Assembly: GCA_963703315.1 (NCBI GenBank)
Contig: OY969811.1
Coordinates: forward strand, 1,344,001 to 1,408,000
Length of the DNA stretch: 64,000 nucleotides
Direction of reading: 5' to 3'
Origin: an uncultured cyanobacterium
GTDB taxonomy: Bacteria; Cyanobacteriota; Cyanobacteriia; Pseudanabaenales; Pseudanabaenaceae
Of the stretch, positions 24,701-35,647 are shown piece by piece. Under the pieces are notes generated by a model. It had not been told where the DNA came from and did not search any database. It was given only the letters and a program-made list of their open reading frames with translations. A program made the position numbers and the translations under genes. The first letter of the stretch is position 1; every line of letters starts with the position of its first letter.

Positions 24701-25348
24701 CAATTCCTGCTCAACAATCCTAAAACGTTCTTCCTGCGCCTTCACATCATCAAGCTTGTCCTTGGCTGTGGAAATTTTGCGATCAAACTCACCGACACCC
24801 GCCAGTTCATCAATAATCTCGCGCCGCTCCCGCGAATTCATGGAGATAATGCCCGTGACATCCCCTTGCAGCACAACATTATAGCCTTCAGGATAAATAC
24901 GGAACTTGGCTAACTGTTCATGCAGTTCGCTTAAATTGCAAGGAGTTCCATTGATATAGTAAGTAGAAGTATAAGTCCCCTGACTCGTCACCCGCAACTT
25001 CCGCATTACTGTCCATTCGCCCTCGGTCTGCCCCTCAGATCTGGGAATGTCCACACCTTCACTTTGCAGCGCCGCCATCTCTTCCGCTTCTAGCGCAAAG
25101 GTGACGATCACACTCGCCTCGACCATCCGCCCTTTTTTGCTATGGGCTTGGTTAACCAAATCTGGCAAGCGATCCGCCCGCATCCCCTTCGAGCCTGCCA
25201 ACCCCAGCGCAAATAGCAACGCATCCAAAATATTCGATTTGCCCGATCCATTAGGTCCTGAAACTACCGTAAACCCCTGCAAAAGCGGGATCGATACGGT
25301 CGAGCCGAAGGACTTAAATCTGGTGAGTTCTACGTTTTTAATGTACAT
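21749..25348 (-). CDS. smc: Chromosome segregation protein SMC
   Basis: GPNGSGKSN, long coiled coils, hinge GRATFLPL, MSGGEKS, FDEVD. Confidence 0.97.
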   Translation of the reverse strand: MYIKNVELTRFKSFGSTVSIPLLQGFTVVSGPNGSGKSNILDALLFALGLAGSKGMRADRLPDLVNQAHSKKGRMVEASVIVTFALEAEEMAALQSEGVDIPRSEGQTEGEWTVMRKLRVTSQGTYTSTYYINGTPCNLSELHEQLAKFRIYPEGYNVVLQGDVTGIISMNSRERREIIDELAGVGEFDRKISTAKDKLDDVKAQEERFRIVEQELIANKEKLKGDRVKAEKYKALRLEYERMEASEAVLQQREITYQQSLRNVELINNREQCEGIEKSLVELSQVIETGTVQLNELSDRVHTLGEEEYLSVSSNLSAQQAELRGLQRQQQSLTSSYQNNQNHIVSTQEEIDRLLRESEQLESQKQFKEEAVVTAEKARDQQSSIVSQYRKEVQAIASASSEWVRQQTQLRQDVDTAQAELDPQKQEQTRIKEVLNQRSLQLESQEKELKEIVAGEGRYAVDMLSNQSLEDALRLQEAEVNGAESLVQTLAKNLAEAQLEVQLQNETIDRLNQEQRVKSRQLDKLEAQVQASREVQGTRASQVIIEADMLGVYGLVAQLGLVEPRYQLALEICAGGRLGNLVVESDEVAAEAIALLKKERAGRATFLPLNKLQPAKFPSRVEAQKLGAIDYAFNLVTYEDRYQDVFSFVFGNTLVFENLNQARFHIGKYRMVTLEGEILETSGAMTGGSAPLHSSLHFGNAKPAESSETKQLRDRLLEIDQMLARLNQRLRGALTGIAKYEEQLQSARTTHREAQLKRDRIYEQIERNSRDRTRLQDQIQKTRAAIEIGQAQLNTLDGNIAELEAKLLVKRAELTELEKSGTHTRWLQAQEALQGQDALLNTAEIELRTAKQQLGELENQHKLALEKMAQRQTRLQELRSTQAELINSTSQIQHQIKQTEQAITSYQSRLDALEQTIGAAKQERDAAERSLRAQQQQYQQQEWQLQKNRERQVELEQQIAQFTEQLNQIELPDIVPEVPETMTLEQLQLEQRRLLKRIQSMEPVNMMAIAEYEATSERLDELSSRLETLNQERTELLIRIENFTTLRQRAFMQAFDAVNGHFKEIFSELSDGDGYLQLENPNAPLSGGLTLVAHPKGKQVQNLSSMSGGEKSLTALSFIFALQRYRPSPFYAFDEVDMFLDGSNVERLSKMVRKQANLAQFIVVSLRRPMIEASERTIGVTQARGEHTQVLGLELRSSS

Positions 25349-25525
25349 AGTGGTGATCTGGGGGTGCGATCTGGGGGCTGATCGGTGAGGGATGGTCAGG
25401 GAATGGAGATCGGGCTATGCTAGTTTTTGACAGCACGAAAGTGCCAATAGGCTATCACATCTTGTCAAAAATGGTGTAAGTATCGCCAAGATTTCAGTAA
25501 TTCTCATTAACCATGAATCACCCCT

Positions 25526-25987
25526 ATGAAAATACATTATTGCCTTGTCTCTAGCGCGATCGCCTTACCTCTATATTTCTCACTCGTGCAAACTGCGATC
25601 GCTAATCCAGTTAGTCAATTATTAGAAACTAGAGCCTGTTATGAATGCGAGTTAAGTAATGCCAATCTAGTTGAAGCAAAACTCAATGGTGCAAATCTGA
25701 GCTTGGCAAAAATGCGGGCAGCAGACTTGCGGAAGGCAAATTTAATCGGGGCAAATTTAATCGGGGCTTACTTAAGAGATGCCAATTTTCAAGATGCTAA
25801 TCTACGCTGGGCAAACTTTACTAATGCGGACTTAGAGAATGTGGATTTTCGAGGTGCAGATTTGAGAGGAGCAAAGTTTAATGCAGCTTTATTGAAGGAT
25901 GTTAACTCTCAAAAGAGCATCTTTTGCCGCACGATTATGTCTGACGGCAAGCTCAATAATCGTGATTGTCGATTATCGGGCGATTGA
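25526..25987 (+). CDS. Exported pentapeptide-repeat protein
   Basis: Signal peptide ending AIA, C..C.L, A(N/D)L repeats, CRT.M.DG..NNRDC. Confidence 0.9.
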   Translation: MKIHYCLVSSAIALPLYFSLVQTAIANPVSQLLETRACYECELSNANLVEAKLNGANLSLAKMRAADLRKANLIGANLIGAYLRDANFQDANLRWANFTNADLENVDFRGADLRGAKFNAALLKDVNSQKSIFCRTIMSDGKLNNRDCRLSGD

Positions 25988-26062
25988 ACTGCCAGACACT
26001 GACCGCTTAGGCGTTACAGCGCCCACTTTCTGATTCAATGGGAATATCCGTCTAACAAAATC

Positions 26063-26195
26063 ATGGACAGCTTCCCCACAATCTTTCTATCTCATGGTGC
26101 GCCAGATTTGGGGATTAGAGTCTAAGGGAGTCCAAATCCACAGCAGCTATACCTATGGTGTTTTCAGTATGGCAGCTTACGCATTTAGATCGTAG
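26063..26195 (+). pseudogene. Internally deleted DODA/LigB-type extradiol ring-cleavage dioxygenase remnant
   Basis: MDSFPTIFLSHGAPDLGIR (family N-terminus) is joined out of frame to ESKGVQIHSSYTYGVFSMAAYAFRS* (family C-terminus); the central part is missing. Confidence 0.75.
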
Positions 26196-26204
26196 AGTCG
26201 CAGG

Positions 26205-26308
26205 GCGATCGCCCCTAATCTCAATAATAAAGCGATCGCCTAAAATATCCACACTTTCACGAACAAGCGATCGCCCCCAACCAACCAACAACATCAAACA
26301 GCGATCGC
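26205..26308 (+). repeat. HIP1-punctuated repeat array 1 (units A-B-C, 4 HIP1 sites)
   Basis: GCGATCGC at 26205, 26232, 26267 and 26301, separated by A (CCCTAATCTCAAT..), B (CTAAAATATCCACACTTTCAC..) and C (CCCCAACCAACCAACAACATCAAACA) spacers. Confidence 0.9.
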
Positions 26309-26380
26309 TTATAACCTAAATCACAAAGTGATGTATTTAATGTATTGACATCATGTATTTCACTTGGTTACATTAGAGAC

Positions 26381-26692
26381 ATGGACTTTGAATGGGACAA
26401 CAAAAAGAACAACGCCAATATCGCAAAGCATGGAATTGATTTTGAGTTTGCTAAGGAAATTTTTTCAGGTATTTGGATTTCAAAACCTGACAATCGCAAA
26501 GATTATGGCGAATCTCATTTTATTGCTCTTGGAGGTTTGGAAGGTTTTGTTCTCCTTGCTGTCTACACTCTGCGAGGACAAAGAATACGTCTCATTTCTG
26601 TAAGGCTTGCAAATAAAGAGGAAAGGAGAATTTATTATGGCTATATCGAGAGAAGAACAATTGAAAATCCTTGGTCGGATGAAGGATTCTGA
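26381..26692 (+). CDS. BrnT-family toxin
   Basis: MDFEWD..KN..N..KHGIDF, D.R.DYGE, VYT.R...IRLIS.R.A...ER. Confidence 0.88.
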   Translation: MDFEWDNKKNNANIAKHGIDFEFAKEIFSGIWISKPDNRKDYGESHFIALGGLEGFVLLAVYTLRGQRIRLISVRLANKEERRIYYGYIERRTIENPWSDEGF

Positions 26693-26891
26693 TATTGACT
26701 ATACGGACGCTCCTGCGACAAATGCTGACTTTTGGGAAGATGCAACGGTTAACATTCCACCTGTCAAGGTTCCTGTTACGTTGAGACTTGATCCGAATGT
26801 TTTAGCTTGGTATAAACAACAAGTTCCACGAGGTTATCAAACTCTAATCAATAATGTTCTACAAAAATACATGACAGATCATCAAGCCTAA
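26637..26891 (+). CDS. BrnA-family antitoxin
   Basis: DIDYTD.P....FW..A and VTLRLDP.VL.W.K...GYQT.IN.VL; RBS AAGGAG before the ATG at 26637. Confidence 0.9.
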   Translation: MAISREEQLKILGRMKDSDIDYTDAPATNADFWEDATVNIPPVKVPVTLRLDPNVLAWYKQQVPRGYQTLINNVLQKYMTDHQA

Positions 26892-26902
26892 ACTTGAGTT
26901 AT

Positions 26903-26982
26903 GCGATCGCCTAAAATATCCACACTTGCACCACACAAGCAATCGCCTCTCAACAAACCAACAACATCAAACAGCAATCGCC
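26903..26982 (+). repeat. HIP1-punctuated repeat array 2 (units B-C)
   Basis: One GCGATCGC plus two degenerate GCAATCGC with the same B and C spacers. Confidence 0.85.
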
Positions 26983-27002
26983 TTATTAATTTGTGGCAAA
27001 AA

Positions 27003-27455
27003 CTAGAAAGATTTCCTTGAATCAGTTGATGGAGGATGCCAACCAACTTTCACCCATGCTTGTCTGGCTCTCACAATTTCTGTTTCACTGCGAACTTCAT
27101 CATTCAAATCTAGCCGATTTACAGTTGCTCTTCCCACTTCCGTAATACCAATAATTCTACAGCCATCTTCACTCCAAATAAAATGCTCATTCCATACTTG
27201 CTGGCGAGGATGAAATAGATTTACTGCGTTTAATGTTGCTGGATCTTTTCCTTGTGTGAAGTTGTAATGATGTGAGTTGCAGCGCTGACAAGCTAGGGCT
27301 AAGTTATCTATATTGTCTGAACCTCCAATAGATCTTGGTTGAATGTGATCTATCTCAAACCTTGCAGGGCTAATTTCTTCTGAAGAATGACAATATTCAC
27401 ATAAAAAACTAGCTCTTTGTCTTATTTGGAGTCTTACTGCTGTAGGAATTGCCAT
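27003..27455 (-). CDS. HNH endonuclease
   Basis: CEYC, IDHIQPRS.GG....NLALACQRCN, LFHPR.Q.W.EHF, GRAT...L.LN, GWHPP; likely ATG at 27455. Confidence 0.9.
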   Translation of the reverse strand: MAIPTAVRLQIRQRASFLCEYCHSSEEISPARFEIDHIQPRSIGGSDNIDNLALACQRCNSHHYNFTQGKDPATLNAVNLFHPRQQVWNEHFIWSEDGCRIIGITEVGRATVNRLDLNDEVRSETEIVRARQAWVKVGWHPPSTDSRKSF

Positions 27456-27462
27456 ATAAAAT

Positions 27463-27702
27463 CTAGGCTTCGCTAATAATTTTGGCATTAAGCAAGGTAA
27501 AAATTTGATCTAATTCCAAAATCCCTGCTAATTCTGCTTTTTCTTGGTCATTTAGTCCGATTCCTTTAAGACGCTCATTCAAATTATCTAGGCGCTCTTG
27601 TAATGGCTCAGAGAATTTAAATAAATAGCGATCGCGCACTTTTGCGGTAATAATTCCTGTGGATATCCACGAAGAGGGCTTTACCATTGTTTGAGTCATC
27701 AT
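27463..27702 (-). CDS. Small helical protein co-transcribed upstream of the HNH gene (putative antitoxin)
   Basis: 79 aa; FKFS..LQERL..L.E......L...E.AEL.GI.EL..IFTLLNA; 7 nt from the HNH start. Confidence 0.65.
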   Translation of the reverse strand: MMTQTMVKPSSWISTGIITAKVRDRYLFKFSEPLQERLDNLNERLKGIGLNDQEKAELAGILELDQIFTLLNAKIISEA

Positions 27703-27739
27703 TTGTTTAACTCCATTCTCTTGCTAGTGACAATTATAA

Positions 27740-28257
27740 GCGATCGCCTAAAACATCCATGCCTTCGCTAAATAAGCGATCGCCCCTAATCTCAATCAAA
27801 AAGCGATCGCCTAAAATATCCTCACTTTCACCAACAAGCGATCGCCCCTCAACAAACCAACAACATCAAGCAGCGATCGCCCCTCAATATACCAACAACA
27901 TCAAACAGCGATCGCCCCAAATCACAATCAAATAGCGATCGCCCAAAATATCCACATTTTTACCCACAAGCGATCGCCCCCAACCAACCAACAACATCAA
28001 ACAGAGATCGCCCCTAATCTCAACCAAAAAGCGATCGCCTCAAATATCAACACTTCCACCACTCAAGCGATCGCCCCCTCAACAAACCAACAACACCAAA
28101 AAGCGATCGCCCCTAATCTCAATCACAAAGCGATCGCCTAAAATATTCATACTCTCACCACACAAGCGATCGCCCCTCAACAAACCAACAACACCAAACA
28201 GCGATCGCCCCAATCTCAATCAAATAGCGATCGCCTAAATTATCAACACTTTCACCA
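27740..28257 (+). repeat. HIP1-punctuated higher-order tandem array 3 (16 HIP1 sites; order B A B C C A B C A B C A B C A B; ABC unit about 96-99 bp)
   Basis: HIP1 at 27740, 27776, 27803, 27838, 27873, 27908, 27935, 27970, 28004 (GAGATCGC variant), 28031, 28067, 28103, 28130, 28166, 28201 and 28227. Confidence 0.95.
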
Positions 28258-28421
28258 TAGAGATATTTCGCCCAGCCTGAGTAGGTACAATATTTTTTCA
28301 TAGTAATTTAGATCAGTTTGGTTAAAGTCTCATATATTTTATATTTAACAAATACTCACTATTGCCGCTATTTGTCCACTATCATTTATATCAGAAGCTT
28401 TCTTTTAAGGTTGTATAAGCG

Positions 28422-29606
28422 ATGAGTTTACATAGACTTCCACTCGATTCTAAAAAACTTGAAGTATTGATCAAGAAAGCTAGGCACTACAACATTTTTC
28501 CCATGTATTTTTCACAGTATATGCCTAATGCTCGACAGCACCCAATCAGTGAGTGTTTAGCTGATTTAGTGAATGATGCCTATGAGTATTTATCTGCATG
28601 TAGTGAAAGTGAAATTGAAGGGCTTATTGATCATATGCCCACGGGTTACAGAATAACGTTTGATCTATTTGGTGGTAAATTGCAAGTAGTAACAGAGGAA
28701 CATCGACGAAGGTTAGCTTTTTGCATTGTTGCATTTGAAGTTGAGCTTAGTTACTTTAGTTTTAAGGGAGTAATTGAGCAAGATTTATCTCAGAGTGAAA
28801 TAATAAAAATTTATCCAGAGCTAAAAAATAAGTTTGATAAAGATGGATTACTTCATATAGATTCTAATTTTATTCTCTTTGATGGTGGAGTTGAATATAA
28901 AGGACACATTCTTCACTACCATCAACTTCTTAGGCGAGGATACACATCCAATCCTAACTTTGATTTTCTCGATAGATTTATAAGTTATTATCACCGCACA
29001 AAACATGAAAATCAGTTCAGAATAGCCATTGATCACCGAAGAATTATGACGAAAGAGTTTTATACTCAGATTGGAGAAATGGATGGATGGCGTGGATTAC
29101 CGTTTGACAAAAATAAATTAGATGATCCAAACTATATCGGATTGACTGTTGTAGAGCGAAATAAGAAATCATTATTTGGAATGACTTGTGACCTTGATCG
29201 TACTGAATTCTTTTGGAGTTATCGTGATGGTATTAAAACTTTTGAGATTGAGGAAATATCAGGAGATAGCTATATATTTGATCATTACTACTTTAATCGA
29301 TATGTGCATAGTGAGCGTGACATTAAAACAAAATTATTTCGGCATTTAGATGGAGCAGTGAAAGTATATCTCAAAGATAGTTATCAAGACAGAAAAAATT
29401 CATTTATGCCAAAGGAATTAAAGAGTCATACCAAAGTTAAACTCTGGCGCATTGATGGTGATATAAAATTAGAGGTTTGGAGTAATCTAATCTCATATTT
29501 TTTCAAAAACAATGAGATGATTACTCAATATTTTGATCCCGAAGGATTTGAGAAGATATTTGATTTGCGAGTTCGTGATTTTGAGGCATGGAAACTTTCT
29601 CAATAA
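28422..29606 (+). CDS. Hypothetical 394-aa protein, AT-rich and HIP1-free (probably horizontally acquired)
   Basis: Long intact ORF with no family I can recognise; no GCGATCGC seen in it. Confidence 0.75.
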   Translation: MSLHRLPLDSKKLEVLIKKARHYNIFPMYFSQYMPNARQHPISECLADLVNDAYEYLSACSESEIEGLIDHMPTGYRITFDLFGGKLQVVTEEHRRRLAFCIVAFEVELSYFSFKGVIEQDLSQSEIIKIYPELKNKFDKDGLLHIDSNFILFDGGVEYKGHILHYHQLLRRGYTSNPNFDFLDRFISYYHRTKHENQFRIAIDHRRIMTKEFYTQIGEMDGWRGLPFDKNKLDDPNYIGLTVVERNKKSLFGMTCDLDRTEFFWSYRDGIKTFEIEEISGDSYIFDHYYFNRYVHSERDIKTKLFRHLDGAVKVYLKDSYQDRKNSFMPKELKSHTKVKLWRIDGDIKLEVWSNLISYFFKNNEMITQYFDPEGFEKIFDLRVRDFEAWKLSQ

Positions 29607-29610
29607 AGCT

Positions 29611-30000
29611 CTAATGTAATATTGCTATTGGAATTATTTGAAGCAATATATCACCTAAACTTCTTTTTGCTTCCATTAACTCATAGGCATAATGCAACCG
29701 CAAAAAATAACCATCCGACAAGCCAAAATAGCGACATAACCGCAAATCAACATCCGCAGTCGTCGGAGCCTTACCTTGAATAATTTGCTGCATACTCAAA
29801 TATGGCAACCGCAAACTCTCAGCCAAGCTATTTACACTAATATCTAACTCTTCTAAAAACTCATATTGCAAGATTTCGCCAACATGAGGATTACGCAGTA
29901 AAGTATCTTCCATATCAGGATGCTTGAGAGTCGTAAGATCGAATAAATCTAAAACATCTTCATCTTCATCAAACTTTTTATCTAACTCTTCAGCTTTCAT
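29611..30000 (-). CDS. HigA-family addiction-module antitoxin with an N-terminal CopG/BrnA-like fragment
   Basis: PHVGEIL..EFL, LA..L and T..D.DLRL.RYFG.S.GYFL.L (HigA). The first 29 aa (MKAEELDKKFDEDEDVLDLFDL) resemble a different antitoxin N-terminus. Confidence 0.78.
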   Translation of the reverse strand: MKAEELDKKFDEDEDVLDLFDLTTLKHPDMEDTLLRNPHVGEILQYEFLEELDISVNSLAESLRLPYLSMQQIIQGKAPTTADVDLRLCRYFGLSDGYFLRLHYAYELMEAKRSLGDILLQIIPIAILH

Positions 30001-30009
30001 ATAAATTGG

Positions 30010-30231
30010 CTAAGCTAGCTGCAATACTTGAGGTGAGGGTAAAGGTTTATCCGTTGCTTCGTAGTCTTCGATTAAAAGTTCTAATACCTCCTCTGCATTA
30101 GCGATCGCCTCTGCATAAGTATCTCCATGCGTAAAGTATCGCTGCAAGGCATTAGAAAACTCAGGTAACTCTACTAGATAACATTTATCTTCATCTGACC
30201 AAACAATATTAACGCGATACTTATGTTGCAT
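30010..30231 (-). CDS. HicB-family antitoxin (short form, no hicA partner)
   Basis: Y.V.I.WS.ED.CY.V..PE and THGDTY.EA..NA.EVL......P.P.P. Confidence 0.88.
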   Translation of the reverse strand: MQHKYRVNIVWSDEDKCYLVELPEFSNALQRYFTHGDTYAEAIANAEEVLELLIEDYEATDKPLPSPQVLQLA

Positions 30232-30235
30232 AGTT

Positions 30236-30469
30236 TTAGCCAACTGATGATTGAGGCATAGACTCGATTAAGGCTCTTAGCACTTTGTTAACGGCTTCAG
30301 GCGTAGTGAAAACTCTTGCCACATCTTCATCTAAAACCACAATATTTAGGCTTTTAGCTTCACTACGATTAGCAAAACGATTGGGTTTAGCCTTCTGATA
30401 ATCAAAGTTATATTCAGGTAAAAGATCATCATCAGTATTTAATTGATTTCCAAAACTATTGCTGTTCAT
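30236..30469 (-). CDS. Antitoxin partner of the adjacent BrnT toxin
   Basis: DDLLPEYNFDY.KA.PNRFA and VVLD.DVA.VF.T.EAVN.VLR.LI; overlaps the toxin stop. Confidence 0.75.
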   Translation of the reverse strand: MNSNSFGNQLNTDDDLLPEYNFDYQKAKPNRFANRSEAKSLNIVVLDEDVARVFTTPEAVNKVLRALIESMPQSSVG

Positions 30470-30728
30470 ACTTTTCACGCTCTGTTCTAGTGGCTATACG
30501 GGCGCTAATAATCCGAATATTAGTGGAGCGTTCCGTAAAAGAAATAATCAATAATCTATTGCGTTGCGAGTGACCAATAATGATCTCTCTTAACTCATCA
30601 AAAGAATGTGCCTCATCATCAAAGATTACTGCTAGAGGATTATCAAATACTGTTTGAGCTTCCTCAAAGCTAACACCATGCTTTCTCAGATTAGCGATCG
30701 CTTTTGCATTATCCCACTCACACTTCAT
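30456..30728 (-). CDS. BrnT-family toxin
   Basis: EWD..KA..NL.KHGVSFEEA.TVF.NP, D..HS..E.R...IG.S, IRIISAR.AT..ER..YE. Confidence 0.92.
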   Translation of the reverse strand: MKCEWDNAKAIANLRKHGVSFEEAQTVFDNPLAVIFDDEAHSFDELREIIIGHSQRNRLLIISFTERSTNIRIISARIATRTEREKYEQQ

Positions 30729-30777
30729 AAACGTATTATAACCAACTATCAAATTATTCTGGAATACAGATAAATAA

Positions 30778-30797
30778 CAAGGGGCTTAAGCCCCTTG
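30778..30797. terminator. Short palindrome CAAGGGGCTTAAGCCCCTTG downstream of gltB
   Basis: Perfect palindrome just after the gltB stop. Confidence 0.5.
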
Positions 30798-30808
30798 CCT
30801 CTTGTTAT

Positions 30809-33800
30809 CTAGCTGCCACCGATACGGGCAACATCGCGGGAATTGGCTTCAAAAGCAGCATTGAGCGCATCATCACCACTCAAACCATCTTCCAATGCTT
30901 CCTTAATCGCTTGCAATACCCGCTTGTAATCCTTGGGCATTACCTTCACGAATTTAGGAGCGATCGCATTCCAATCAGCGAGAACTCGTTCACCGATCGC
31001 ACTTTCCGTATAGTCAACATGCTGTTGAATCAACTGCTTCAGATCCTTGATTTCTTCGGGATCTTCGAGCTTTTCTAAGCCGACCATTGAAGTATTGCAA
31101 CGGGTTGCGAAATCGCCTGAATCATCGAGAATGTAGGCAATACCGCCACTCATGCCAGCCGCGAAGTTCCGTCCTGTTAAGCCCAAGACCACGACCTTAC
31201 CGCCAGTCATATATTCGCAACCATGATCGCCGATGCCTTCGACTACGGCATTTACGCCAGAGTTGCGGACTGCAAAGCGTTCGCCAGCGATACCGCGAAT
31301 GTAGACTTCACCACTGGTTGCGCCGTAGAGTGCGACGTTACCTGCGATCACGTTCTCTTCCGCAACAAAGGTAGAAGCTTTATCTGGATAGAGAATGATT
31401 TTGCCGCCGCTTAGTCCTTTGCCGAGGTAGTCGTTGGTATCGCCTTCGAGTTCCATCGTTACACCAGAGGGAACGAATGCGCCAAAGCTTTGACCAGCAG
31501 TACCTTGGAAATGCAGATGCACGGTATCGTCGGGCAATCCTTCCCAATGGCGCTTGGTGATTTCGTTGCCGAGGATCGTGCCGACGGCGCGATTGATATT
31601 ACGGATGGGAACGATCTCATGGATTGGTTCGCCATCAACGATCGCAGCTTGGCACAAATCCAACAACACAGTCATATCAAGGGACTTATCTAAACCGTGA
31701 TCCTGTGGAATTTGGCAATAGCGACCGACATCTTCGCCAACTTCGGGTTGATAGAGAATCTTCGAGAAGTCTAAACCCTTGAGTTTCCAATGCTCGACGG
31801 CTTGCTTCGCTTCTAGGACTTCAGTACGACCGACCATTTCATCAAGGGTGCGGAAACCGAGTTTTGCCATCAATTCGCGGACTTCCATCGCGATGAAGGT
31901 CATGAAGTTGACGGTGTGGGCGGGATCGCCTGTGAACTTCTCGCGCAGTTGCGGATCTTGGGTGGCGACACCGACGGGGCAGGTGTTGAGATGGCAGACG
32001 CGCATCATGATACAACCAAGAGTAACGAGGGGCGCGGTGGCAAAGCCGAACTCTTCTGCTCCCAGTAGCGCGGCGATGACGACATCACGACCTGTTTTCA
32101 TTTGTCCATCGGTTTCCACAACGATGCGGCTGCGGAGGTTGTTGAGAACGAGGGTTTGGTGGGTTTCCGCGAGTCCGAGTTCCCAAGGTAAGCCAGCGTG
32201 TTTGATTGAGGTTTGGGGCGATGCACCAGTACCGCCATCGAAGCCAGAGATGAGAACCACATCAGCATGGGCTTTAGAAACCCCTGCGGCGATCGTGCCT
32301 ACGCCCACTTCCGATACTAACTTGACGCTGATACGGGCGGCGCGGTTGGCATTTTTTAAATCATGGATCAACTCAGCGAGGTCTTCGATGGAGTAGATGT
32401 CATGGTGAGGCGGTGGTGAAATCAATCCGACACCTGTGGTGGAGTGGCGAACTTTGGCAATCCAAGGATAGACTTTCTTGCCAGGGAGTTGACCGCCTTC
32501 CCCTGGTTTTGCGCCTTGAGCCATTTTGATTTGAATCTCTTTGGCTTGAGAGAGATAGAGGCTAGTTACGCCGAAACGTCCAGAGGCTACTTGTTTAATA
32601 GCGCTATTTTTGGAATCGCCAAACTCGTTTGTCCATGTGTAGCGATCGGGATCTTCACCGCCTTCGCCTGTGTTGGACTTGCCACCGATGCGATTCATGG
32701 CGATCGCTAGAGCTTCATGGGCTTCCTTAGAAATCGAACCGTAGCTCATCGCACCCGTTTTGAATCGGCTCAAAATTGATTCAATCGGTTCTACTTCATC
32801 AATGGAAATAGATTCGCGCGATTTGAAATCGAGTAAGCCGCGCAGAGTGAAATGCTGCTGATTCTGTTCATTGACGAGGGCAGAATATTTCTTGAACAGT
32901 TCATAGTTACCATCGCGTACCGCCTTTTGCAAAGCGTGAATAGCTTCAGGGCTGAACAAGTGCGCTTCGCCATCCTTGCGCCATTGATAATCACCACCGA
33001 CATCGAGGGTATTGCCACTGGCAGGGCGATCGGGGAATGCATGGGTATGACGGGCGATCGCTTCTTTGGCGATTACTTCCAAATCTGCGCCTTCAATGCG
33101 TGAGGCTGTCCAAGTGAAGTATTTCTTGATCACATCATGATTCAATCCAACCGCTTCAAAAATCTGAGCGCCACGATAGCTTTGGATTGTGGAAATACCG
33201 ATTTTAGAAGCAACCTTAGTTACACCCTTTGTTGCCGACTTGATGAAGTTCTTGCAAGCAGTTTTGAACTCAACATTCACTAAGAGACGTTGATCGATCA
33301 TGTCTTTGATCGTTTCAAAGGCAAGGTAAGGATTGATTGCGCCGCAACCATAGCCAATCAACAATGCAAAATGATGCACTTCTCTAGGTTCGCCAGATTC
33401 GAGGACTAAGCCGACTCTGGTACGGGTTCCTGTACGAATGAGATGGTGATGTAAGCCTGATACCGCTAGCAATGCAGGGATAGGAGCATTGTCAGGATTC
33501 ACGCCCCGATCGCTTAAAATCAAAATATTCACACCATCAGCGATCGCTTGATCCGCTTTTTCACAAATTTGCGAAATCACTGCTTCTAATCCAGTTACTC
33601 CTGCTTTTGGATCAAACAAAGTAGAAAGAGTAACCGATTTAAAACCACCTTCATTAATATGCTTCAACTTCGCAAGTTCGGCATCGCTGAGAATAGGAGT
33701 CTTTAGCTCGATCAAGTGACAGCTTTCTGGTTCAGGCTTGAGTAAATTCCGTTCTGCACCAATGGTTGTCTCCGCAGAAGTAATAATTTCTTCGCGAATA

Positions 33801-35404
33801 GAGTCAATCGGTGGATTGGTTACCTGTGCAAATAGCTGTTGGAAATAATCATAGAGAAGTTTCGGGCGATTGGAAAGAACTGCTAAAGGCGTATCTGCTC
33901 CCATTGCGCCGATCGCTTCTACACCATCACGCGCCATTGGTGTTAATAGCAAACGCAAATCTTCAAAGGAATATCCAAAAGCCATTTGACGCTGAGTGAG
34001 TGCAGGAGATTCCACTTCGGCAGTAACTTCTGCATCCTTCAAACTGGCGATATCCACCATGTGCTGATTAATCCATTCACGGTAAGGCTGCTCAGTCGCG
34101 ATTTGATGCTTGATTTCTTCATCAGCAACAATCCGCCCCTCTTGCATATTCACAAGGAACATCCGCCCTGGTTGCAAGCGACCTTTCGATTCAATCATTT
34201 CAGGAGCGATGTCTAATACACCTGCTTCCGACGCGAAGATAACCAAATCATCCTTAGTGACATAGTAGCGAGAAGGACGCAAACCGTTGCGATCCAACAC
34301 AGCGCCGATCATTGTGCCATCGGTAAAGGCGATCGAGGCGGGACCATCCCAAGGTTCCATCAAACAAGAGTGATATTCATAAAAGGCTTTCTTTTCATCA
34401 CTCATCGACTCATGGGCTGTCCAAGGCTCAGGAATCATCATCATCATCGCGTGAGGTAGCGATCGCCCAGCCAGCACCAACAATTCCAAAGCATTATCAA
34501 AAATCGTCGAGTCACTGCCTTCGATGTTAATGACTGGCTTAATTTTCGAGATATCATCACCAAACAAATCGGACTCAAACATCGCCTGACGAGCGATCAT
34601 CCAGTTAGTATTGCCGCGCAAAGTGTTAATTTCGCCATTGTGGGCAATGTAGCGGTAAGGGTGCGATCGCTCCCAACTGGGGAAAGTATTCGTACTAAAG
34701 CGGGAGTGAACCAGAGCCAGAGCGCTCTCCATGTCTGGGTCGTGCAGATCGTGGGCGTAATACTGTCCGACTTGAGCCGTCATCAACATCCCCTTATAGA
34801 CGATGGTGCGACAGGAGAGACTGGCTGGATACCAGTAAGCATCAATATTTGAAGTACGGATCGCCGTGTGAGCTAGTTTGCGAATTACATACAATTTGCG
34901 ATCAAAGGCTAGGTCATCAGCAAGATCGGGCGATCGCGCAATAAACACCTGCTGCATGAATGGCTCACTGGATTGAGCCGTAGCCCCCAATGACGAGTTA
35001 TCGGTGGGGACATCACGCCAACCTAAAACTTTTAAACCTTCAGACTCCACCAGCTTTTCAAAAGCCTTTCTACCATTTTGGCGGGCTTGCGGATCTGGCG
35101 AAGCGTAGACCATGCCCACGCCATATTGACCGACCTCTGGCAGGGAAATATTTGCGGCGGCGGCAGCTTTTAGCAAAAACTTATGGGGGATCTGCATCAA
35201 AATCCCAGCACCGTCACCCGTATTCGTTTCGCAACCGCACGCGCCGCGATGTTCCAAGTTCTCCAAAATCGTCAGCCCCTGCTCGACGATCGCATGGGAT
35301 TTTTTTCCTGATTTATGGACGATAAAGCCGACCCCACAAGCATCGTGTTCAAATTGGGGATCGTATAAACCTTGTTTTACGGGTGTTGCGTTGCTATTCA
35401 TCAT
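30809..35404 (-). CDS. gltB: Glutamate synthase large subunit (GltB type)
   Basis: [43 protein letters not shown] 3Fe-4S motif, GXGXG domain. Confidence 0.95.
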
Positions 35405-35647
35405 GGACTGCAAAGGTGTGATATCTAAAGGATTATGTGAGCTTCAACGTAATCGAAAGGTTACGGGGGCTACATTGGATTGTACTAATAAATTTATGTC
35501 TTAGGTAGGATGTTTTCAAGAAATGTTCCTAGCTATAGCTGTCGCCAGTCTTGTTAGTCTAGCTGAGCAAATAGTCGCAGACTCGTACTTTTAGGTGAGG
35601 ATCACTTTATCATGAGCAGTATCTAGCATTTTTTACGCAGCTTTTGT

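Follow-up and report, generated by a model that had tools for sequence, protein, structure and literature searches.

We examined a 64,000-nucleotide stretch of DNA from an uncultured cyanobacterium of the Pseudanabaenaceae (contig OY969811.1, positions 1,344,001 to 1,408,000; hereafter the window), in which three arrays of short repeats alternate with small gene pairs. The repeats are anchored on HIP1, the cyanobacterial palindrome GCGATCGC, and come as three units, A, B and C. Comparison across the genus Pseudanabaena suggests that the A-B-C arrays bound interchangeable toxin–antitoxin (TA) modules, and we lean, though not strongly, towards the view that they act as recombination joints that need no integrase. 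The cassette architecture with HIP1 joints is real, widespread and apparently undescribed, and its mechanism is what we infer from it. The same fixed-ended modules turn up between arrays at more than one locus, their order and neighbours changing and their orientation staying constant. The arrays, the gene pairs between them and the conserved gene to their right are as follows.

26205..26308, + strand: array 1, ABC, with A at 26205, B at 26232, C at 26267 and the closing HIP1 at 26301.
26301..26332, + strand: degenerate A-like unit and partial HIP1, the left junction of the BrnTA module in an alignment of 7 copies.
26381..26692, + strand: brnT, type II TA ribonuclease toxin (PF04365, E 8e-23).
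26637..26891, + strand: brnA antitoxin (PF14384, E 3e-11).
26903..26981, + strand: array 2, units B and C and a closing degenerate HIP1.
27003..27455, − strand: HNH endonuclease gene of the HNH1 module, a putative TA-like pair (PF01844, E 1e-15).
27463..27702, − strand: 79-aa open reading frame (ORF) lying upstream of HNH; relatives have the two as a pair as well.
27740..~28257, + strand: array 3, BABCCABCABCABCAB, 16 units, the long array on the gltB side.
30809..35413, − strand: conserved hotspot anchor in the genus, its 3' end matching in same-genus genomes; named without a family search, it is what we take to be gltB, for the large subunit of glutamate synthase.

When the region was cut at HIP1-like sites, the resulting units were 26–27 nt (A), 35–36 nt (B) and 34–36 nt (C) long, each headed by GCGATCGC and all on the + strand. 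The three have only HIP1 in common and all are direct; in array 2, two HIP1 copies are degenerate to GCAATCGC. An earlier reading made from the letters alone (the sequence-only reading) had described ABC, BC and BABCCABCABCABCAB in one orientation, and cutting at HIP1-like sites gave exactly that string. It had also described the two gene pairs as oppositely directed, which they are, brnT/brnA lying on the + strand and the 79-aa ORF and HNH gene on the − strand. Although HIP1 is common in this genome (G000), a single 4.57-Mb contig with 8,189 sites (1.79 per kb), the arrays are not a product of chance, because 61 of 121 close HIP1-like triples have two G-poor spacers compared with 0.9 expected from permuted spacers. 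In the predicted structure of the long array only neighbouring HIP1 copies pair, forming 8-bp stems. An Rfam search of the array gave no family match, and a terminator search at the arrays found none.

The long array matched all 48 genomes of the genus at E ≤ 0.001, where the weakest matches may be to other HIP1-chain families. An exact C-unit motif occurred in 25 stretches of the GTDB collection, all of them labelled Pseudanabaena, Pseudanabaenaceae or unclassified cyanobacterium, and had no match in viral contigs. At the 3' end of gltB, 24 stretches were available: an ABC array was present in 13 and absent from 4, and 7 were too short to judge. ABC arrays also lie between lipA and fmt (G006 and G047), and further arrays in G000 itself accompany a second brnT/brnA pair at 4.367 Mb and a yefM/yoeB pair at 3.021 Mb. 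The number of units between modules ranges from 1 to 30. In most genomes the housekeeping gene beyond the gltB array varies (LpxD, YlmH, CynS, RNase II, enolase, phycocyanin genes and others), and from these far-side genes the arrays may also be breakpoints of chromosome rearrangement. A related HIP1 chain lies between restriction-endonuclease and PemK/MazF genes on a Pseudanabaena plasmid (NZ_AP017566.1; L106:5001–5130). A phage or plasmid origin of the arrays was rejected on the basis of no exact match in viral contigs and this single weak plasmid match beside a PemK/MazF gene.

What lies between arrays is nearly always a gene pair of 0.6–0.9 kb, most often a TA pair. Module types include two BrnT/BrnA pairs, YefM/YoeB, PIN/CopG and other PIN pairs, DUF433/DUF5615, MNT/HEPN, HTH/Gp49, ParE-like genes and two HNH pairs, and there are larger blocks, namely DUF488–DUF488–DuOB (PADLOC candidate PDC-M45) and radical SAM/TcmP. 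Some modules match the PADLOC candidate defence systems PDC-M45, M28 and M30. With 12 module queries we recovered 67 copies, distributed over 26 of 31 ABC loci. The 11 copies of HNH1 have 6 types of left neighbour and 5 of right neighbour. Order differs as well: brnTA1 comes before HNH1 in G000 and after it in G022, and before yefM/yoeB in G005 and after it in G003 and G021. Given these conflicting orders, loss from one ancestral array is insufficient to explain the loci. The slot between lipA and fmt is occupied by HNH2 in G006 compared with HNH1 in G047, both near-closed assemblies. Duplicate modules within one genome are 94.0% and 88.8% alike and are thus not fresh tandem copies. Distances between module copies tracked those between gltB genes weakly (rho 0.40 in 10 genomes; 0.24, not significant, in 8 genomes), the pairs being non-independent. 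On two of the three points that the sequence-only reading had named as able to refute it, these results speak in its favour: units are not random with respect to gene class, being tied to TA genes, and cassette content is not identical across strains, since it differs between genomes.

All modules are co-oriented in each of the 18 loci that hold two or more, with no inversions; a distant yefM/yoeB type that the module query missed is oppositely oriented in G022. Modules and anchor genes are read from either strand, with no fixed relation to transcription. In most cases, homology between module copies extends as far as a HIP1, complete or partial (…GATCGC, GCGAT…), past which the unit may be A, B or C and differs between copies. 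Breakpoints, the third point that could have refuted the sequence-only reading had they fallen outside the repeats, are found at the arrays. Among 395 closed units from 34 loci, the A→B→C phase is kept in 257 of 292 classified transitions; the other 35 gain or lose whole units at HIP1, and 13 units are unclassified. Recombination at a bare symmetric palindrome would be expected to invert modules, so direction is likely to come from the units. With no inversions in the 18 multi-module loci, recombination at the bare palindrome is a less favoured reading than exchange that follows the homology of oriented units.

One locus offers a view of how new DNA may enter. In G021, a 3' piece of gltB and two defence-candidate genes (PDC-M28) lie inside an array. 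The gltB piece, which is from another lineage, shares 95.4% identity with the resident gene. It joins the array within ATCGC, a motif present at that point in 19 of 21 gltB alleles, and because a 5-bp overlap is probably too short for a k-mer assembly artefact, we read the join as a capture caught in place. Array-free copies of modules were tried as a source of further capture joins; homology runs only from promoter to stop codon, leaving the original joins unreadable. Unit–unit joints were seen in metagenome contigs, where they are equally explained by mapping among repeat copies or by other strains and so do not bear on circles.

Divergence was compared among 370 units from 83 arrays and was 0.153 within long arrays, 0.161 against the remaining arrays of that genome and 0.166 against units from different genomes. 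As divergence within an array is near that between genomes, the long arrays are patchworks, and we rejected recent tandem amplification as the origin of the long array. The sequence-only reading had suggested that the long array is a scar of emptied slots, which is compatible with patchwork arrays; out-of-register exchange would give the same pattern. Spacers contain about 1% G, an estimate biased by a spacer filter that admitted at most 3 G per spacer. Changes from A to G amount to 0.006–0.014 per base in spacers compared with 0.035 in module cores, although units are otherwise more variable.

Chains of HIP1 with G-poor spacers, defined from DNA alone, extend beyond the ABC family, and at other loci the spacers belong to unrelated families. 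There are 172 such chains in the genome, 73 of them outside long ORFs. Outside the window, 19 of 25 chain-to-chain intervals contain a TA-family gene; 4 of the remainder contain DUF4926/DUF6883, DUF29, DUF2283 or Uma2, 1 contains LysE and 1 gave no match. The DUF6883/DUF4926 pair lies between chains in two families (L057:8584–9177, L144:4184–4836), and this recurrence as a module makes it a candidate TA pair. For a survey of the class we used the pattern HIP1, 16 non-G, HIP1, 16 non-G, HIP1, which was present in 26 of 151 genomes, comprising 10 of 10 from the genus and 16 of 141 others that represent ten other families (142 overlapping matches). With an A-free control pattern there were 13 matches, spread over 8 genomes, and 6 of these matches are the G/T-rich opposite strands of HIP1 chains. 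Outside the genus, we read 20 loci from 13 of the 16 genomes. A TA-type gene was within 900 nt in 15 of these loci (in one, XisH/XisI only), Uma2 in 1 and neither in 4, and chains lie beside TA genes in 11 of the 13 genomes; here we assumed that DUF433/DUF5615, DUF4160/DUF2442, UPF0175/DUF3368 and XisH/XisI count as TA-type. As side observations, the TA load of G000 is very high (9 BrnT, 21 PIN, 22 ParE and 29 DUF433 matches genome-wide), and several TA genes, for instance near 1.598, 1.640, 1.870, 2.177 and 2.801 Mb, are bracketed by non-G-free HIP1 direct repeats.

To account for these patterns we propose three steps. In the first, exchange, DNA taken up from relatives would align with an array already in the genome along the oriented ABC period of ~98 bp, and host homologous recombination would resolve the pairing, with clustered HIP1 raising the rates of both uptake and crossover. 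Modules would be swapped, added or deleted with phase and orientation kept, and patchwork long arrays would be built. In the second, capture, new DNA would join at 3–8 bp of microhomology within HIP1, as the gltB fragment and the partial-HIP1 module ends may illustrate. In the third, retention, DNA between direct repeats would be easily deleted, so that the modules that persist would be those that are addictive or protect from phage. The genome contains comEC and dprA. In PCC 7002, according to the accessible part of one preprint, homology arms that carry HIP1 give up to 7-fold more integration, and more than 100-fold when it is methylated, with AddAB dispensable (bioRxiv 10.1101/2024.09.10.611283). 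The sequence-only reading had suggested that the unit may be a docking or recombination site for cassette gain and loss; module content, order and breakpoints support this in part.

Several points weigh against the proposed exchange through arrays. The case is comparative, in that no exchange event was observed and no protein is tied to the repeats, and it draws on related, non-independent genomes, many of them fragmented, in which mis-joins at repeats are possible. A single unit provides 27–36 bp of ~85%-identical homology, a length that is short for RecA. The same modules also occur free of arrays, 4 of 17 long-enough gltB loci lack an array, and the repeat-free zone next to gltB turns over equally. 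Two left module ends (HNH2 and hyp99/PIN) lie inside unit C and not at HIP1. About three quarters of sampled TA genes are outside such arrays: in a sample of 80 BrnT, PIN, ParE and DUF433 matches (one PIN in a 378-aa frame was excluded), 19 were within 1 kb of a chain compared with 112 of 1,433 other small ORFs, and a HIP1-anchored direct repeat brackets 20 of 80 compared with 51 of 600 controls. The avoidance of G in spacers is also not accounted for by the proposed mechanism.

An alternative, which we consider unlikely, is that a trans-acting site-specific recombinase, for example a genus-wide Xer-like enzyme or one directed to HIP1, cuts and rejoins at HIP1 under the direction of the unit flanks and that modules move as circles. 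This would be consistent with the clustering of junctions at or inside HIP1 and with the suppression of G in spacers, which suggests a structural constraint. A candidate enzyme exists, a 507-aa Xer-like tyrosine recombinase (G000 1754114–1755637) whose R-K-HxxR-H-Y motif is apparently intact by eye and which has similar-length matches across the genus. The available text of one paper also links HIP1 to site-specific recombination in PCC 7002 and has SDR5 inserting between HIP1 nucleotides 3 and 4 (PMC4390886). Yet the site is not constant, given that 1–30 units of three types separate modules, that the spacer families at other loci are unrelated and that HIP1 occurs thousands of times in the genome, and no serine resolvase was found in G000. 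The sole array-adjacent integrase-like gene encodes TetR fused to a degenerate tyrosine-recombinase domain (L055:12586–13833; G000 4367585–4368832) beside the second ABC locus. We rejected it as the enzyme of the system because the first catalytic Arg is absent (by eye), the match is below the PF00589 cut-off and it adjoins only 1 of 31 loci. The gene divergent from it is presumably desaturase-like. The sequence-only reading had seen no integrase in the window, and tblastn with three recombinase queries, of limited sensitivity, agreed. A recombinase tblastn of 66 array loci returned one IS110 fragment and missed the TetR fusion also, which limits its sensitivity. IS110 and Y1 elements were rejected as partners, the 7 IS110 copies and one Y1 match (PF01797, ~1 Mb away) being far from ABC arrays. 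No recombinase is consistently linked to the arrays. The Xer-like protein has a degenerate extra integrase domain at its N terminus and an apparently intact one at its C terminus.

The repeats could instead be passive scars of HIP1-targeted micro-insertion and slippage that accumulate in TA hotspots, with hotspots replaced whole through flanking core genes and repeats doing no more than easing deletion. We regard this as quite unlikely. It would suit the fact that most TA genes are not flanked by repeats and that the zone beside gltB varies without them; the 8-bp stems of neighbouring HIP1 copies favour slippage, and deletion from HIP1 to HIP1 is known at smtB (PMC13756078, part of which was available). 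Against it, the same three units persist throughout the genus, at ~16% divergence and with a bias against G. Conflicts in module order and moves between loci need insertion and not loss alone, and since the far flank differs in most genomes there is no second core anchor through which whole replacement could occur. A third possibility, that arrays are regulatory spacers (insulators, protein-binding sites or unstructured RNA) separating TA operons with recombination incidental, is very unlikely because, although arrays are intergenic, strand-biased and constrained in composition, they have no fixed relation to transcription (modules and anchors being on either strand), no terminator, no Rfam match and 1–30 units.

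Returning to exchange through oriented arrays, a broader form of the idea would be that many cyanobacteria have a methylation-guided HIP1 recombination pathway that works without IntI or attC, in which HIP1/G-free chains serve as docking sites where TA and defence modules are captured and passed from one lineage to another; this is possible, and we hold it doubtful.

The closest known layout is that of the NIME arrays of Neisseria (dRS3 and RS), in which, in the available portion of the source, a palindrome alternates with spacer families in dynamic, syntenic intergenic arrays that are proposed to promote recombination with incoming DNA via homology or a recombinase (PMC1797815). There, NIMEs flank surface-protein genes and serve allele exchange, whereas ABC arrays mark off whole modules, mostly TA, and these undergo gain, loss and reordering. 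The sequences and the phylum are different, and on inspection ABC units do not contain the dRS3 motif as given in the text available (PMC1797815). Unlike NIMEs, the ABC units are anchored on HIP1, which occurs throughout the genome and in other cyanobacteria is a target of methylation. Integrons and clusters of the CALIN kind are alike in having oriented arrays of small cassettes with fixed ends and variable content; they differ in that the ABC system has neither IntI nor an attC fold and has a variable number of units between modules. Integron cassettes are rich in TA genes. They are reportedly rich in defence genes as well (bioRxiv 10.1101/2024.07.02.601686). Sites of the dif type bind Xer proteins and alternate in orientation. 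The dif modules of Acinetobacter (pdif/XerCD) are likewise bounded by repeats, often TA and shuffled by a host enzyme encoded elsewhere, and as far as the accessible text goes they show inversions at the Xer-binding dif sites, whereas ABC units are direct, chromosomal and without inversion in 18 loci (PMC13141974).

Earlier HIP1 events (the smtB deletion, plasmid recombination in PCC 7002 and SDR5) have HIP1 at their junctions too; in the portions available they amount to isolated events or to a 21-nt repeat for which Nostocaceae alone are reported as hosts, and not to gene arrays jointed by repeats (PMC4390886, PMC13756078, PMC5861425). A join between nucleotides 3 and 4 of HIP1 would also fit the junction of the G021 gltB fragment. 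A minimal mobile element consists of variable genes between two conserved flanking genes. It resembles the present loci in having variable genes beside a conserved gene, competence genes and no mobility gene (named in PMC1797815, available in part). It differs in that internal joints let single modules move and that the gltB array has a conserved flank on one side only: the gltB side is constant and the far side varies, whereas lipA–fmt fits the minimal-mobile-element layout in G000, G006 and G047. A CRISPR array, which would have a constant repeat of >20 nt with unique spacers, was rejected because only 8 nt are constant, the spacers fall into three recurring types and Rfam gave no match; REP or BIME elements with RAYT were rejected because only HIP1–HIP1 stems fold and the single PF01797 match is distant. 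The architecture belongs to none of the NIME, integron and dif-module systems.

The comparison with integrons could be taken further within the genus. In G000 no IntI was found, the best TIGR02249 score being 32 bits against a cut-off of 265, whereas IntI exceeds this cut-off in 23 of 48 genus genomes. A crude attC scan (RYYYAAC…GTTRRRY) made no calls in window positions 25300–31000. Applied to 17 stretches around 16 IntI genes, the same scan picked up attC-like sites in 5, and none of the 17 held an ABC unit; in 8 array loci it made four weak calls, of which both that we inspected start inside the yoeB coding sequence. The arrays are thus not the CALIN of a lost integron, as there is no IntI and no attC, and true integrons of the genus lack ABC units. 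The term 'integron-like' in the sequence-only reading holds for the layout alone, and the true integrons of the genus are a system apart. Genuine Pseudanabaena integrons with classical attC were seen in L107, L108, L109, L111 and L119, and 40-bp direct repeats lie beside intI in 3 of 4 loci scanned (L111:13778–13901, L114:5733–5895, L115:6729–6806).

Our literature search found no description of HIP1-jointed TA arrays; most subscription papers were beyond its reach, so a prior mention is possible. The parts available of three HIP1 papers (PMC4390886, PMC5861425, PMC13756078) and of a repeat review (PMC3184786) cover single deletions, plasmid recombination and SDR5, and not gene arrays. What HIP1 does has been an open question for some 30 years, as two of these papers state in the text available (PMC5861425, PMC13756078). 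The arrays provide natural loci with HIP1 at mapped junctions of gain, loss and capture, and the idea that HIP1 is a recombination hotspot becomes testable with defined substrates of ~100 bp. If a HIP1 cassette platform exists, it would give HIP1 a concrete cellular job. The DNA pattern alone locates TA arrays in ten families of the class besides this one, which provides a handle for new TA and defence genes; should short HIP1 chains direct integration, cyanobacterial engineering could use them as compact landing pads.

The remaining features around the arrays in the window are these.

26063..26190, + strand: internally deleted remnant of a LigB-family dioxygenase gene (PF02900), the left boundary of the island.
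26345..26374, + strand: promoter-like site of the BrnTA module, TTGACA-18-TACATT, from a consensus scan.
28422..29606, + strand: 394-aa ORF (cluster c40).
29611..30752, − strand: repeat-free variable zone with HigA (BrnA-like start), a HicB-like gene, an 80-aa ORF and a second brnT.

The LigB remnant keeps only the first and last ~55 bp of the gene, its 5' and 3' pieces matching ends that are ~720 bp apart in the intact 258-aa gene of relatives; in 3 relatives with the intact gene, no array follows it. Left of array 1, positions 25992–26190 comprise the end of a multicopy element (7 matches in G044) and then the remnant. Matches to a pentapeptide gene in 10 relatives have a different gene after them and were uninformative on the left flank. 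The promoter scan called 4 sites compared with 6.3 in shuffles, so the site at 26345..26374 is no evidence of function. The HNH gene of HNH1 has weak PtuB-type PADLOC matches, and searches of Pfam, PADLOC and NCBIfam gave no family for the 79-aa ORF. The 394-aa ORF, also without a match in Pfam, PADLOC or NCBIfam, has a repeat array on its left side only and among fetched loci occurs only here and in G003; atlas leads for it are weak (0.90 or lower), some being ADP-ribosyltransferase-like. Gene content of the repeat-free zone beside gltB varies among relatives. At 29611–30000 in this zone, a HigA antitoxin and the first 33 residues of a BrnA-like one form a single protein, a fusion suggestive of a deletion that joined two TA loci. 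At 27725–27747 and the corresponding ends of other modules, a minus-strand TATAAT or TAAAAT abuts HIP1 at the right end of the HNH1, HNH2 and MNT/HEPN modules; this hexamer was seen by eye and not called by the promoter scan, and with a −10-like hexamer lying against HIP1 the adjoining unit could supply the −35 region.

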